Assembly: GCA_951406725.2 (NCBI GenBank)
Contig: OX597830.1
Location: forward strand, 34,410,001 to 34,474,000
Source of the DNA: Octopus vulgaris
Taxonomy: Eukaryota
Direction of reading: 5' to 3'
DNA: 64,000 nt
The number at the start of each line of letters is the position of its first letter. The stretch's first letter is position 1. Both the position numbers and the translations under genes were made by a program. The notes under the pieces are model-generated. The model saw only the letters and a program-made list of their open reading frames with translations, had not been told where the DNA came from and did no database searches. This document shows, one piece after another, positions 3,722 through 58,343 of this stretch.

Positions 3722-3900
3722 TAAAGGGAAATTTTTACGAAAATAAACAAAAGACGAAGGCAGGTGGAGTACAAAAAAATGTATTAGTATAGCGCTCAGG
3801 AATAGAAAAAGTCTTTTACGTTTCGTGCCTACGCTCTTCGACAGAAAGATACACAGAAAAAAACAAGGAGATAAAAAAATACGTGTAGGAGCTGCCGATA
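3722..3900 (-). mobile_element. Penelope-type pLTR-like short element carrying a minimal hammerhead (family H1)
   Basis: Homologous to 56613-56810; inserted between (TA)n and (CA)n tracts; contains the hammerhead fold at 3812-3849. Confidence 0.6.
3812..3849 (-). ncRNA. Putative minimal type-I hammerhead ribozyme, A6U core variant
   Basis: Minus strand: tcttt CTGTCGA a gagc-gtag-gcac GAAA cgT A aaaga. Stem I tcttt/aaaga; stem II with 1 mismatch; palindromic ACGT stem III. Confidence 0.5.
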
Positions 3901-16193: not shown

Positions 16194-16432
16194 TCGCTTG
16201 TCACAATGCCTTTTGCATCGATTTAGCTTTTGAATGATACCACTCAACTAGTTAGGTGAGCAGGCCAATATTCCCCTCGATCGAAAGATTAGTCTGCTGC
16301 AGAGTTATCCATTTACAGCTGAGTGGACTGGAGTTAAATAAAATAAAGTGTTTTCGCTCGGTCCGGGAATCAACCCGCCCCCGATCGCTAGATCGTGAGT
16401 ACAACACCCTAACCATTAGGCCACGCGCCTTC
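16190..16432 (-). mobile_element. tRNA-derived CORE-type SINE family C
   Basis: Minus strand head gaaggcgcgtggcctaatggttagggtgttgtactcacgatc..gattcccggacc, then core aaacactttatttt...ccagtccactcagctgtaaatgg. Confidence 0.85.
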
Positions 16433-25439: not shown

Positions 25440-26020
25440 AAGGGTAAAGGTAAGGTTATATATTCCCCACATAGATGGGATACGGGTCCATCGCAGAGTC
25501 ACTCACTTTTGCCAGCTGAGTGGTCTGGAAAAACGTGAAATGAAGTGTTTTGCTCAAGAACACAACGCATCGCCCGGTCCAGGAATTGAAATCACAAGCT
25601 AACAATCATGAGTACAACATCCTAACCACTAAGCTACCCATTTCACATTTCCATTGCATGGCACGTTGATAATTGTCTTCTACTATAGCCCTGAGCTGAT
25701 TCATACCATCTGAGTGGAAATGGTTGATATGAACAGAATCTTGTCCTGCACGTATATATATATATATATATATATATAATAAATGCGCCCTTTTAAAGCC
25801 TAGCCAGGCTCATGGGCCCACTTTACCGGTTTCAATGGCGTATGTGTTCCCCAGCTGGACGGGACGCCAGTCCATCGCAGCGTTACTCATTTTTGCCAGC
25901 TGAGTGGACTGGATCAACATGAAATGAAGTGTTTTGCTCAAGGACGCAACGCGTTGCCCGGTCCAGGAATCGAAACCACAATCTTACGATCATGATGCTG
26001 ACACCCTAACCATGCGCGTC

Positions 26021-26077
<57 letters not shown>

Positions 26078-26421
26078 TCGTCGTCGTCGTAACCCCTTCG
26101 GACATAAAGGATCTTGGGATTGCACCTAGAAAATTACCCTCCCAGGCACAAGTCTGGGCAAGATTATTTATGGAAGACCAGCAGTCGACCATGTATACCA
26201 GCCTCCCCGCTCCACGCCACCGATGTTATCCAAGGGAAAGGCAAAGGCCAATACAGCTTGGCACCCGTGACGTCGCAACTTATTTCTATACCTGAGTCAA
26301 CTGGAGCAACGTGAAATAAAGTGACTTGCTCAAGAACACAACACACAACCCAGTCAGGGAATCGAACTTATAACCTCACGATCGTACGCTCGACACTCTA
26401 ACCACTGAGCCATGCGCCTTC
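25440..26421 (-). mobile_element. Cluster of three SINE family C copies (25440-25640, 25782-26020, 26085-26421) with different tails
   Basis: Shared head/core (gagtggactggagcaacgtgaaat.aagtg..ttgctcaagaacacaac); the first copy is nested in a degenerate family A head. Confidence 0.85.
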
Positions 26422-26431
26422 ATATATCTAT

Positions 26432-35560: not shown

Positions 35561-36039
35561 GTAGTGGTTGCTTTTATTGTAGTAGTTGTTGCTGCTTACT
35601 TTTCCAGTTCTTTAACATTAAATGCCTTGACTATTGCTGAAATAACAAGACAAATATTAATTTAAAAAGTGACATGAAGTAAGAATAGGCAGCCATATTT
35701 AACAAAAGGTTATTTACGCTACAATCAATCAGTGGACTCTCTTCATGGTCGCTCAATTGCTAAAAAGCATTACCAACATCCTCCCAAGCCACACACTACT
35801 GCTTTTATAAATAATTTAGTTTTAGAGGAAGTGTAATAACATTGTCAGTCTTAGGTTTGCTCGATCATGACTGACCTAAGACTAAAGAATAAAAGACAAC
35901 CACAGATTAACTACAGATGATTAATAGTTAAATGCCGGGGCTATTAGTAAGAATCCTAACCCAGCTCAACTTTTCCTTTGCGACCCTGCTGATCACATCT
36001 CACTTCTCTGCAAAGATGCACCCCTTCCTCTGCTTTCCC

Positions 36040-36720
36040 CTCCTTGGACTTTTCCAGTAAGTCCCCCTCACCCTCCTCCTCGGAAGTCCTTCCCTTTCCA
36101 CCCCTTCCCCACCTCCTCGGAACTTTCAAGGAAGTTGCCCACCCTCGTGCACTTTTCCAGGAAGTCATTCGTCCTCCTCCTTTCTTTCCTCCTCGGAATT
36201 TGCCAAGAAGTTTCCCAACCTCTCCTTGGACTTTTCCAGAAAGCCCTTCCTCCCCTTCACCCTTCCTCGGAAATTTCCAGAAAGTTGCCCAAACACCTCC
36301 TTGGACTTTTCCTGGAAGTCCTTCCCATCCTCGGAACATTTCAGGAATTTGTCCACACCGTCCTAAGACTTTTCCAGGATTCCTTCATCCCCTCCTCCCC
36401 TTTATTCCTCCACGGAACTTTCGAGGAAGTCCTTTCCCCTCCTCAGAGCAGGAAGTTGACCAGCCCCACATTGGACTTTTCCAGGAAGTCCTTCCTCCAC
36501 ATCCTTAGAACTTTCCAGGAAGTCCTTCATCCCCCTCCATGGAACTTTCCGAGAAGTTACCCATTCTCGGAACTTTCAAAGAAGTTGCTCCTTCCCCCTC
36601 CTTGGAACTTCTCAGAAAGTTGTCCACCCGCCTTGGACTTTTTCAGGAAGTCCTTCCTCCCCCTCCTCAGAACTTTCAAGGAAGTTGCCCACACCATTCT
36701 CTGACTTATCCAGGAATTCA
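36040..36720. repeat. GC-rich minisatellite of alternating ~30-33 nt palindromic subunits (~60-65 nt dimer)
   Basis: Units ccttggacttttccaggaagtccttcctcccct and cctcggaactttcaaggaagttgcccacc; about 20 diverged monomers. Confidence 0.9.
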
Positions 36721-37429: not shown

Positions 37430-37712
37430 AAATGATAAACTTCTGGAAAGTTTTACAAATTTTTATAGTTCCAGGGATTGCTTGGAACAGTAATCTTCAA
37501 ATTAGCTTTCTCTTTTCTGGTTTTGAGAAGCTTAATTTCTCAAGATTGGTACTTAGGAAGTGTGTTACATATCCCAGGGCCCTAAAAATTACAGGTATAA
37601 CCCTTAACTTGTAATCTGGGTTGAGTAACTGCAGATTTCTCATTAGTTCAGAGCAGGTATATTCTTTTTCATTGATCTTTAGCTTTATGCTAACATCTGC
37701 TGGGGCAACTGG
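37430..37712 (-). mobile_element. 5'-truncated RLE (R4/Dong-like) retrotransposon C-terminus
   Basis: PADVSIKLKINEKEYTCSELMRNLQLLNPDYKLRVIPVIFRALGYV...GTIKICKTFQKF*; restriction-like endonuclease tail. Confidence 0.8.
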
Positions 37713-37927
37713 TATGTATATATGTATGCATGTTTGCATGCGTATATGAATGCATGCATGTATTAATGTAGTATGAATGCTTATATTGCATATGTATACA
37801 TATTTGTGCATGCGTGCGTAGGAATGAAAGTAAACATATTCACTTATAAATTTGGAAGAATGTTCTCAAAATTCAAAATGTTATGATACATAAATCACGC
37901 ATTACATATTGATAAATGCTAATATAT

Positions 37928-44263: not shown

Positions 44264-44523
44264 TGGAGGCGCATGACTTAGAGGTTAAGGTGTCAGCATC
44301 ATGACTGTAAGATTGTGGTTTCGATTCCTGGACCGGGTGATGCGTCATGTTCTTGAGCAAAACACTTCATTTCACATTGTTCCAGTCCACTCAGCTGGCA
44401 AAAATTAGTAACTCTGCGATGGACTGGCATCCCATCCGGCTGGAGAACACATACACCATGGAAACCGGGAAACCGAGACCATGAGCCTGGCTAGGCTTTA
44501 AAAGGGTGCATATATTTATTTAT
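44264..44523 (+). mobile_element. SINE family C with 75-bp flanking direct repeat
   Basis: tggaggcgcatgacttagaggtt...gtttcgattcctggaccgg...ctgcgatggactggcatcccatcc...(attt)n; direct repeats at 44189-44263 and 44524-44598. Confidence 0.92.
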
Positions 44524-53103: not shown

Positions 53104-53610
53104 TTCACCACTACCACCACTGCCAAGACAATCATTGTCATCATCATAATCATCATCATTACCACTACCACCAACACCAAGATCATCGTCATCATCGTCG
53201 TCATCATCATCAACATCATCATCATCGTCATTGTTCTCTTCCTCCGTGTCATCATTTCCATCACAATCAGCTTCAGCATCATCATCATCGTCACCACCAC
53301 CACCACCACCACCAAGACCATCATCATCATTGACATCATTGTCCCCATCAACATCATCTTTATCATCATTGTGTTCCTCCTCATCCTCATCGTCATCATT
53401 ACAATCGCATTGTCATCATCATGATCATCATAATCATCAACTTTGTCGTCTTCGTCATCATCATTAACATCAGTACTATCATCATAATCAGCATCGTTAT
53501 TGCCATCATTGTCTTCATCGTCATAATCATAGTCCCCATCAACATCTTCACTATTACTATCATCATCATCAACCACATCATCATCACAACAACACTCTCC
53601 TTATCATCAG
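52400..53610. repeat. Large compound (CAT/CAC/CAA)n low-complexity block
   Basis: Direct reading; gives poly-His/Ile/Ser/Asp pseudo-ORFs in all frames. Confidence 0.9.
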
Positions 53611-53697
53611 GATTACCTTTTTAAAGAGACTAACTCAACAGAAGTTCTTAGGAAGAGAAGACATTTTGCATTTGCTATCTTGACAACTGGTGATTGT

Positions 53698-53742
53698 CAC
53701 ATGCTGATGATTGGGTCAAATTCAGAAACCTGGGTCCATGTG
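53698..53742 (+). ncRNA. Putative type-I hammerhead ribozyme with fully canonical core
   Basis: cacatg CTGATGA t-tggg-tcaaa-ttca GAAA cc-tg-ggT C catgtg. 6-bp stem I, wobble stem II, short stem III, GUC cleavage triplet (cut after 53736). Confidence 0.75.
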
Positions 53743-54104
53743 TGTCCCATAAGGTTGAAGATGGTAAGGATGACTTCCCTTTGCAAATACTGATAGGGCA
53801 CAGAAAGTGTGTCAATAGCCAGCTGGAGGAGATGTCCTCCTGGGGCTACAAGCTACAGTAGCATCCACTCTTAAGAGTTAGTCACATTTAAGTGGCAAAT
53901 ATACTTCATGGTGTCGTGCAGCTACTGTGTATACCTCGCTCTGAGATTTATTATTGAATGTTTCACTTGATCATTCCAAATTATTGTTGTTATTGATGCT
54001 TAGTAGCAGGCAGGTTAGCCAGATTTGGGTAGATGTAGCAGAGATTACTATGTTTTTCAGCAGTGCACACAGCTATTTTACTCTTGTTTTGGGTAAGAGT
54101 AAAG

Positions 54105-54455
54105 GGCAAAGACACCCCTTTGGTTATAAATGACCACGGGATTGCACCTAGAAAGTTACTCTCCAGGACACTAGCCTTCTCTCTCCATGAATGATCATGA
54201 GATTGCACCTAGAATGTTACCCGCCAAGACACCAGCCTCTCCTTTCCACTTCAGCAATGTTACCCAAGGAAAAGGCAAGGGCCAATACAGTTTGGCACCA
54301 GTGATGTCGCAACTCATTTCTACAGCTGAGTGAACTGGAGCAACATGAAATAAAGTGTCTTGCTCAAGAACACAACACACAGCACGGTCCAGGAATGAAG
54401 CTCACTACGTCATGATTGCGATCCCTATGCTCTAACCACTGAACCATGCACCTTT
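54105..54455 (-). mobile_element. SINE family C (tail variant shared with 26085-26421), with internal duplication
   Basis: gggattgcacctagaaagttac..cc segment present twice; family C core and head. Confidence 0.85.
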
Positions 54456-54459
54456 ATTT

Positions 54460-55800
54460 AATTGGGTCACCTTCACTTATATAGTGGTCAAGCATGGTGA
54501 CTGATTGGAAAGAAAAGGTTTGACAGAAGAGGCTGAAAGAAGAGGAGATAATAAAGTATTGGTGATCCCAAAATGAAGGTGTTAGTGCGTGTGTATGTGA
54601 GAATGTGTAATTGTGGGTGAGTGGATAGGGGCCAGTGACTTTGACGTGTGTGTATGTGTGCATGAGTAAATGTATGCATCTGTAACATGTGGGTGCACGG
54701 ATGATGGTGTGTGGTATGTGTGCTGGGAAGTGGTCAGTGCTAATGTGTGTGGATAGGTGTGGGGTGCTGTGATGTGGTGTGGTGGTGTGGTGGTGAGGTG
54801 GTGTGATGTGGGTGTTGGGTGGGACGTGGGTGTGGGTGGAGTGGGGTATCAATGAAAAAAGTAGGTGAGTAGGAGTGAAGAGAAGTAGGTGTCAGATGAA
54901 AAGAAGGAGAGGAGAGGACAGGTGGGTAGGAGTGAAGAAAGGAAGTAGGTATCAGAGGAAAAGAGGAGAGGAGTGAAGGCAGATGAAGAGAGGAGGGTTG
55001 TTGAGCCCATGTGGTGCAAAGGAGCAAAGAGAGAAGATTAATTCCTGTTCACAGCGAAGGCATGAATTCAGATGGCCCCTGTGAAAAGACAATCTGAACA
55101 CAGACAGATGTTGTAGTCAATGACTGGTAGAGCGGAAATGGCATGAGACCAAGGTGTCATTGCCAAGTCTGATGTCTCAGAGGTACTCTGTGAACTGGTC
55201 AGCCAAGCAGCGTCCCATTTCACTGATTTACAGAGAAGGGCAGAAAGAGCAGGAGATGCAGTAAATGACATTGCTAGAAGTGCAGGTAAAAGAGTCGGTG
55301 GTATGATGATGGGTGCCTGTGAGGATGGTGGTGTTGGAGAGCTAAAGGCAAGTGTGTCAGCATGGGCGAGTGCAGGGGAACAAGCCAGGCTGGGAGATCA
55401 GGTAAGGGAAGAAACTGTGGACCAGGAGGTTATGCAGGTTTGTGGGCTTATTTGAAGGAAGGTATATGTTGGGGAAGGTGTGCAAGGTGAAGGGGTCAGA
55501 CTGGAGTCGCCGAAAGGCTAGGAGAATGGTGCAATGGAGAGGCAGGATGGAGGGGTGGTAGGTGAGGGGGAAATGGGAGATGGGTAATGGCAGGGCGGGT
55601 GCAGGGAGAGAGAGCAGAGACACAGTCCAAGGAACATGCTCTGGCAATGGCTGTGTGGATAGTGGTGAGGGGATGTCTACGAAGGATGAATTGGCAAGCC
55701 ATGAGTTGAGACTGAGTCACAAAGTCATGGCTGTCACTGCAGAGCCTGTGCAGTCGGAGGAATTGGGAGTAGGGGATGGAGTGATAGATGTGGGTAGGGT
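54460..55800 (-). mobile_element. 5'-truncated Penelope-like element, Neptune type (Cys-rich linker + GIY-YIG endonuclease), pseudogenised
   Basis: FPLTYHP...LHNLLVHS...FPCTRPC*HTC...FTCTSSNVIYCISCSFCPSL*ISEMGRCLADQFTEYL...REQELIF(CEQELIF here)..APHGLN; pyrimidine-rich 3'UTR. Confidence 0.88.
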
Positions 55801-56610: not shown

Positions 56611-56706
56611 ATCATGGGGAGAATTCACAAAAAAAAGCAAAAGAGGAAGACAGGTGGTGTAGACAACAAACAGATGTATTAGTGCAATGCTCGGGAAGGG
56701 AAAAAG

Positions 56707-56744
56707 TCTTTAATGTTTCGAGCCTACGCTCTTCCACAGAAAGG
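56707..56744 (-). ncRNA. Putative minimal hammerhead, A6U variant (second family H1 element, ~56613-56810)
   Basis: Minus strand: ccttt CTGTGGA a gagc-gtag-gctc GAAA caT T aaaga. Perfect stem II; stem III ACAT is likely CpG-decayed ACGT. Confidence 0.5.
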
Positions 56745-57058
56745 AACAAGAAAGGAACAAAAAGAGAAAATAAGGAATGTTTAGTGGCTAGTGATCTATC
56801 ATGGCGAATTTTATTATATTTAATGTTATTTTATCATACTGGATCAAATTTGTAATATAATGAAGTAAGTGTCAGTAAAAAACAGATAGTAGTAATAATT
56901 ATACTGATAGTGAAAATATTGCAGATTAAAACGAAAATAGTAAAATAGTAAAAGAAATGATAAACATGATAATGGTAAGGATGATAATGCACATTAATAT
57001 AATAATACAGTAATGATACTCTATATATTCAGTATTTTACACACATACACATACACAA

Positions 57059-57829: not shown

Positions 57830-58343
57830 ATGTCATGACTGATCTCAATTATTGAGACCACCTTAAAGCATTGAAATTCTATTCTCTGCAGTGTTTCCAT
57901 GAGCAATACATAATGTGCACGATGTGGAGAGCATATCACCAGCATTGCCCAAACTACCTCAACATTAGTTTCAGAATTCATCCAAGGCCAGGACCATGGG
58001 CCATACATCCTCTGCCCAATTCAGGATCACAATACATAAATACACTACAACACAAATTCTTTTCCTCAACAGGCCCTGCCCTATTTAAGATTATTCTAAA
58101 ACAGATCAAAGAGGAAAAGGATCCCATTATCTTTAAACAGAAACTGGACAAATTTCTTCAAGGGATACCAGAGAAGCCACCTATACCTGGATACAGCTCA
58201 TTCAACAAGAACTCGTGACTTGAATGGACCATGATACACAAAACTTGACTTAAAAAGGATTTAACAAATCCTATCAGGTGGTGCTGTTAAATTAGACATG
58301 GCCTGGGTCAATCTTTGGTCAAAACATATCTAAGTTAGCTAAG

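Follow-up and report, generated by a model that had tools for sequence, protein, structure and literature searches.

A type I hammerhead motif in a very abundant dispersed repeat of Octopus vulgaris, likely a truncated Penelope-like 3' end

We report a type I hammerhead at positions 53698-53742, on the plus strand, of a 64,000-nt stretch of the Octopus vulgaris genome (hereafter the window; assembly GCA_951406725.2, contig OX597830.1, forward-strand positions 34,410,001 to 34,474,000). The motif is present on direct reading of the letters, and we regard it as confirmed. It sits in a 275-nt insertion that is likely to be the 3' terminus (pseudo-LTR), truncated on its 5' side, of a Penelope-like element (PLE) or of a non-autonomous derivative. 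Cleavage is predicted for the dimer alone, and the hammerhead is likely weakened in this copy. The repeat family to which the insertion belongs is very abundant and apparently previously undescribed.

The letters at C3 U4 G5 A6 N7 G8 A9, G12 A13 A14, A15.1-U16.1 and H17 are those required of a type I hammerhead, and the three helices leave their open end at helix I, with helix II weak and helix III formable in trans (Table 1). A sequence-only reading of this DNA had described an intact catalytic core (CUGAUGA/GAAA/GUC), a 6-bp stem I, a stem II with two G-U pairs behind an extra U, and a 3-bp stem III with a 2-nt loop and a GUC triplet, all on the plus strand, and in each of these points it was right. 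The GAAA occupies 53725-53728. Stem II pairs 53712-53716 with 53720-53724 (U-A, G-C, G-U, G-U and U-A, around a 3-nt loop) or, in an alternative pairing, has 4 bp and a 5-nt loop with A as its last letter; stem III consists of A-U, C-G and C-G around a UG loop. Folding gave stem II of this copy a probability of 0.00-0.01, and stem I one of 0.97 in the 45-mer, 0.65 in 53681-53760 and about 0 in the whole insertion. The U behind the 6-bp strand of stem I is seen again in loose-end consensuses of paralogues before 53752/53754, and we take this U53743 to be a possible partner in a loop 1-loop 2 contact. The same reading also called the hammerhead canonical, which holds for the core letters but not for pair 10.1-11.1, where U-A replaces the usual G-C; A11.1 is likewise found in the paralogue loose ends. 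The G10.1-C11.1 pair is described as highly conserved, not absolute (Cervera and de la Pena, 2014, PMC4209133), and as compensatory changes at 10.1-11.1 are reported for cricket hammerheads (PMC2837043) and other departures appear among PLE hammerheads (PMC8557442 File S2), we treat U10.1-A11.1 as a minor variant.

Table 1. Positions in the window of the insertion and of the parts of its hammerhead
Feature	Position	Strand	Basis or remark
Insertion of 275 nt, a member of a dispersed and very abundant repeat family	53681-53955	+	Empty-site contig; depth
Stem I	53698-53703/53737-53742	+	Six Watson-Crick pairs
Catalytic core C3-A9, CUGAUGA	53704-53710	+	Sequence
Extra unpaired U between A9 and 10.1	53711	+	Sequence
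Stem-loop II	53712-53724	+	Closed by U10.1-A11.1; two G-U pairs; weak in this copy
Core G12-A13-A14	53725-53727	+	Sequence; GAAAC seen again in paralogue loose-end consensuses
Helix III, self-complementary 8-mer	53728-53735	+	Predicted partner: helix III of another copy, giving a double hammerhead
C17, predicted cleavage site (cut 3' of C53736)	53736	+	Hammerhead consensus position; last letter of GUC triplet
Stem I 3' strand and unpaired U right after the 6 bp	53737-53743	+	Pair listing
Stretch bounded by the two 3' ends of the family (53908 and 53956; spacing 48 nt)	53909-53955	+	Loose ends

The boundaries of the insertion were obtained by comparing contigs of four of 24 sequencing runs, X1 (organism A), X5 (organism B), X12 (organism D) and X11 (organism A; its RNA label is a guess), over 53590-54110 at 80% likeness. 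In organism D the site is empty: one single-copy X12 contig of depth 48.4 runs straight from 53680 into 53956, its shorter arm covering 46 letters, and the stretch that it skips delimits the insertion. Another single-copy contig, from X5, runs from the left flank through 53792 with 8 differences and 1 gap; since it spans both the flank and the element, the insertion is common to organism B. The GC content of the insertion is 44%, and the higher-GC sequence of ~250 nt that the sequence-only reading had left unassigned behind the motif (41% GC vs 33% for the window) turned out to be the remainder of the insertion. The motif lies close to the 5' edge, with 56 nt of insertion preceding the cut site, and 172-219 nt upstream of the two 3' ends of the family. 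Neither a target-site duplication around 53681-53955 nor a TA flank was found at this locus, and blastn (word size 7) found no second copy of 53600-54110 in the 64-kb window. Shuffled versions of the insertion fold as well as the insertion itself (z -0.38). Two open frames tested here had no Pfam match under E 0.01 (best E 0.07). A coding exon, suggested by open frames and by a donor-like GTAAG near 53765, was considered and rejected, with Pfam E values of at least 0.07 and the stretch being a high-copy insertion that is absent in a relative. Small hairpins are visible in the insertion body at 53825-53870 (plus strand), where the paralogue loose ends also contain a more diverged sister subfamily.

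Contig depth rises from about 50 in the flanks to as much as 2.3e6 inside the insertion, being 6-83 times the flank depth over the hammerhead bins and peaking at 29,000-48,000 times the flank in the three DNA runs; as contig depth is not a copy number, we call the family only very abundant. Pattern scans for copies with flanks returned 0 in viral, metagenome and prokaryote genome contigs, which is expected for animal DNA and so is uninformative. Depth steps up sharply at 53752, where loose ends occur in 50, 56, 22 and 4 contigs. Because the sequence of these loose ends goes on as a hammerhead 3' half, the step marks divergence and not a 5' end. Further loose ends lie behind 53908-9 in three of the four runs (45, 44 and 2 contigs in X1, X5 and X11) and behind 53956 in all four (45, 52, 30 and 5 contigs). 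Their consensuses are TA/AT-rich (agreement 0.47-0.63). Thus, the family has two 3' ends, which mostly run into TA-rich DNA, and the segment between them may correspond to the optional tail that is described for PLE insertions. It had been claimed that this hammerhead, not lying in a (TA)n tract, had a different repeat context from others in the window; this is so at the present locus but not for the family, whose 3' loose ends are TA-rich in 4/4 runs, a target preference that it shares with the window's other hammerhead-like family. Among the 15 of 25 joints listed, 7 are to the opposite strand, 7 are skips and 1 leads back by 108 nt. None of these 15 joins a 3' end to a 5' start (head-to-tail), with the proviso that short-read contigs collapse arrays.

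Taken together, the fixed TA-flanked 3' ends, the inverted joints and the lack of a listed head-to-tail joint favour a PLE 3' end over a tandem retrozyme. PLE hammerheads are described as type I, with a short palindromic helix III, mostly in solitary truncated copies and with weak dimer cleavage (PMC4209133; PMC6765202). The pseudo-LTR hammerheads of Cervera and de la Pena (2014, PMC4209133) resemble the present one in type, in the CUGANGA/GAAA/UH core, in the short palindromic helix III and in the sense-strand site near the 3' end, and an extra nucleotide after A9, as found here, is known among them (PMC4209133). PLE insertions are reported to be truncated on the 5' side, to be accompanied in many cases by an inverted copy and to carry an optional tail of 30-40 bp; their hammerheads are reported to lie near the 3' end, and (TA)n sequences to be the targets in several clades (Craig et al., 2021, PMC8557442). 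The family described here is similar in its TA-rich targets, inverted joints and alternative 3' ends, as judged from the contig joints and loose ends listed, and its copies may likewise be mostly solitary and truncated. In the Hydra clade, PLE hammerheads and the 3' end are separated by ~100-210 nt, and CUGAUGA-U with a UG..CA stem II behind it is frequent (PMC8557442 File S1/S2); here the distances from the cut site to the two 3' ends are 172 and 219 nt, towards the top of that range. PLEs are defined by a linked open reading frame for a reverse transcriptase with a GIY-YIG endonuclease, and the likeness to their pseudo-LTRs described here is one of 3'-end traits. As given in PMC8557442, the sequences of the Hydra-1_oBim hammerhead of Octopus bimaculoides (File S2) and of the Naiad_Obim 3' end differ from the family studied here. 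No identity with a published Octopus Naiad or Hydra PLE was found, the four helix III motifs being absent from the supplement text of PMC8557442, whose broken lines could hide one. The minimal hammerheads of Schistosoma differ in having a helix I of 4-5 bp vs 6 bp here.

The nearest competitor, which we consider unlikely, is that the insertion is a solitary monomer of a metazoan non-LTR retrozyme, that is, a non-coding unit of ~275 nt released from tandem arrays by its hammerhead, circularised, and recopied by a PLE or LINE reverse transcriptase. As PLEs themselves have been named the likely mobilisers of retrozymes (PMC7229834), the two readings are close. Furthermore, the retrozymes described from coral, mussel and axolotl (Cervera and de la Pena, 2020, PMC7229834) agree with the family in size class, GC content and very high abundance: 275 nt falls within the monomer range of 170-400 nt, 44% GC is under 45%, and there is no open reading frame. 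The hammerhead itself has the canonical metazoan type I geometry (PMC4209133; PMC7229834), namely 6 bp in helix I, 4 bp in helix II and a helix III that is short and palindromic; the latter source assigns this geometry mostly to retrozymes. A paralogue spanning the motif in record 9 of X11, the run whose RNA label was guessed, could also speak for a retrozyme RNA, although it is a paralogue and not the 53698-53742 copy. However, retrozymes are found in tandem arrays, whereas none was seen here among the joints listed and there is no second copy in the window; the loose ends are TA-rich rather than entering a next monomer, and the 3' ends are fixed, not permuted. Retrozyme RNAs are also described as highly self-paired, unlike this insertion with its ordinary fold. 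The suggestion that the motif could mark the end of a retroelement or a retrozyme monomer therefore survives in its first half, as an unrecognised insertion of retroelement type, while the retrozyme is disfavoured by the 15 of 25 joints listed, none of them head-to-tail.

Distinctly less probable is an independent SINE-like retroposon with a hammerhead, similar to Sm-alpha of Schistosoma, with a promoter of its own and mobilised by a non-PLE LINE. The very high abundance, short length and fixed 3' end with an (ATT)-like finish are all consistent with it, and SINEs are reported to make up 11.6% of the O. vulgaris assembly (PMC13282606). Against it, Pol III A/B boxes, sought by their consensus, were absent from the insertion at up to one mismatch, although a head may lie upstream of this truncated copy. 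There is also no tRNA gene in the window and no target-site duplication, and the inverted joints and TA targeting are PLE traits.

The paralogues repeat the layout of the hammerhead (GAAAC, palindrome, GUH, stem I) with different letters in helix III. Position 53731, U in the 53698-53742 copy, is C in 70, 40, 58 and 79% of paralogue depth in the four runs; with C at this position, helix III becomes a perfect palindrome, CCCGGG, between A15.1 and U16.1, and this is the majority form in 3/4 runs. CUCGAG stands out in X11, where it goes with a GUA triplet (3 contigs, agreement 0.94), and is also found in X1 from the last letters of GAAAC on (21 contigs, 0.71), and CUCGGG is found in X12 (22 contigs, 0.75). 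These three forms and the CCUGGG of the present copy are all self-complementary, a property open to 36 of the 256 possible inner 4-mers (16 if G-U pairs are left out). The change from CCCGGG to CUCGAG is compensatory, and a helix III that stays self-complementary across changes is the signature of dimer-cleaving hammerheads. The counter-evidence is that consensuses of X1 and X5 before 53752 read CUCCGG (agreement 0.57 and 0.61) and that one X11 consensus (0.64) is also not self-complementary; these non-palindromic consensuses may be mixtures of subfamilies. Outside helix III, 53722 is C in 33, 50, 73 and 100% of paralogue depth (X1, X5, X12 and X11, respectively), which makes a G-U pair of stem II a G-C pair. 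At the U-A pair 53702/53738 of stem I, 53738 is G in 45-80% of paralogue depth, which may reflect either a compensatory change or two CpG decays, 53702 not being among the substitutions listed. Five sites of the motif vary among the 40 of 100 substitutions listed, all of them off the core, and none of those listed falls in 53704-53710. As the probability of avoiding 12 core sites in this way is p=0.19, conservation of the core across paralogues is suggested, not statistically shown. Length changes are a 1-nt gap at 53710 in one RNA-labelled contig and one missing U at 53711/53712 in several paralogue contigs.

Energy calculations predict that this hammerhead would cut only as a dimer, as is described for type I hammerheads whose helix III is short and palindromic; these are reported to cleave poorly as monomers (PMC4209133; PMC6765202). 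The helix III self-duplex was computed at -9.8 kcal/mol for the present copy, -14.9 with C53731 and -10.7 with the second paralogue loop. With C53731 and C53722 combined, the gap between the double hammerhead and the dimer optimum is 0.6 kcal/mol, and two separate monomers are 7.3 kcal/mol less stable; these energies omit the core and tertiary contacts, and the model joins two letters taken from separate per-position depths. Either paralogue letter alone leaves a gap of 6.0-7.2 kcal/mol, and in the 53698-53742 copy as it stands the double hammerhead is 7.2-8.8 kcal/mol above the optimum and level with two monomers. Its monomer fold with an open core lies 7-12 kcal/mol above the ensemble. The insertion contains 2 CpG where 13.1 are expected, and it differs from the X1 family majority at 17 or more positions, 6 of which have the pattern of CpG decay. 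On account of the CpG loss, the differences from the majority and the weakened dimer, we read the copy as an ageing solo insertion that has probably decayed. This places in doubt the sequence-only view of it as the best candidate for a still-active ribozyme, because U53731 and U53722 weaken the predicted active dimer and CpG is depleted; taken as a whole, that interpretation is partly supported.

It is very improbable that the 53698-53742 copy is an active ribozyme that has been retained by the host and cuts a through-running transcript as a monomer. The intact core, the two stem I strands that still pair, the U after the 6-bp stem I and the presence of the insertion in organism B would suit such a role. 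However, the 2-nt loop III, a stem II of near-zero probability, the cost of the open-core fold and the CpG-type differences from the majority all argue against it, as do the absence of the insertion in organism D and the lack of an identified gene at the locus.

Out of 28 CUGANGA sites on both strands of the window, 53698-53742 is the sole one to match a descriptor of all three stems, even with one core mismatch allowed. Windows simulated with Markov chains of order 1, 3 and 5 gave 0/2,370 at the three strictest quality tiers, including stem I of at least 6 and stem II of at least 4, those tiers having been chosen after the motif was seen. Counted by sites, 10 of 2,108,262 simulated CUGANGA sites reached stem I of at least 6 with stem II of at least 4 (1.3e-4 per window), and 0/2,108,262 reached the observed tier (<4e-5 per window). 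The Rfam hammerhead models gave no match in the window at the gathering score or at E<=10, where the four weak matches were unrelated and none was a hammerhead. The families in question, such as Hammerhead_1 (RF00163), are alike in core letters and in the layout of the three-way junction, though no model matched. In the best fold predicted for the monomer, stem I is retained but the core is mispaired, and shuffled sequences fold equally well (z -0.21). A chance match to the hammerhead pattern, for which the silence of Rfam and a minimum-energy fold other than a hammerhead might be quoted, is nevertheless scarcely credible beside its rarity in simulated windows and the paralogues that repeat the layout with compensatory change.

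If the insertion is a PLE 3' end, the life of the family might be pictured as follows. Where copies stand in tandem or are transcribed together, the helix III of one would pair in trans with that of another, and cleavage by each core behind its GUC would process the element RNA. The reverse transcriptase and endonuclease of the element would then copy this RNA from its 3' end into new sites, mostly TA-rich, and copying would often halt early. For the 53698-53742 copy, the 56 nt kept upstream of the cut site imply a template RNA that was likely uncut there; CpG decay and drift from G-C to G-U would have followed, in a copy that has no partner in the window.

The surroundings of the insertion are AT-rich DNA of animal type, laden with microsatellites, and we found four further open reading frames without a Pfam match, with no protein gene identified in the window. 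Upstream, a (CAT/CAC)n-type tract ends near 53610. To the right lies a SINE-like repeat (54114-54460, plus strand) that has an internal duplication of ~60 nt at 54126-54238 and relatives at 26092-26426 (75%), 25885-25970, 25513-25586, 44324-44397 and 16314-16359. Two minus-strand copies of another hammerhead-like family, presumably the (TA)n family to which the sequence-only reading had compared this motif, lie at 3770-3850 and 56670-56745. If stem I is taken as 5 bp, core A6 is replaced by U in both, perhaps as a trait of that family, and the helix III region reads GAAACRU-A; the copy at 3.8 kb runs into a (TA)n tract. An inverted pair of 234 nt (25778-26011 vs 44283-44516, 88% complementary, 18 kb apart) probably represents two copies of a dispersed repeat. 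At 35928-36704 there is a degenerate, GC-skewed tandem repeat in which both strands carry long open frames, without a Pfam match. Finally, the open frames at 37497-37865 (minus strand) and 57856-58218 (plus strand), also without a Pfam match, look to us like C-terminal remnants of non-LTR retrotransposon proteins.

Hammerheads of PLEs have been recorded in molluscs before, with Lottia and Crassostrea in the supplement of PMC4209133, and in octopus, as the pseudo-LTR hammerhead of Hydra-1_oBim (PMC8557442). The giant squid genome is reported to hold 235 Hammerhead_1 matches (PMC6962438), and the repeat annotation of O. vulgaris records Penelope-like expansions, ribozymes going unmentioned in the part of it consulted (PMC13282606). 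The literature on hammerheads, retrozymes and Penelope in Octopus and other cephalopods that we searched gave no description of the present family, which repeat databases may already catalogue.

The copy at 53698-53742 is likely a neutral relic and is therefore of little weight by itself. As to the family, we tentatively put forward, as a somewhat unlikely case, that the 275-nt unit is a non-autonomous mobile RNA led by its hammerhead and parasitising Penelope machinery in its host lineage, probably a cephalopod one, with something like tens of thousands of dispersed copies, still transcribed, and a dimer hammerhead built on U10.1-A11.1. If true, this dispersed mobile RNA would stand between tandem retrozymes and the pseudo-LTRs of PLEs, an intermediate of which we found no account in the literature searched. 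The family is useful as test material: its natural helix III variants with compensatory change, its U10.1-A11.1 core and the filled and empty sites across sister species could together be used to ask whether selection favours dimer cleavage in PLE hammerheads.
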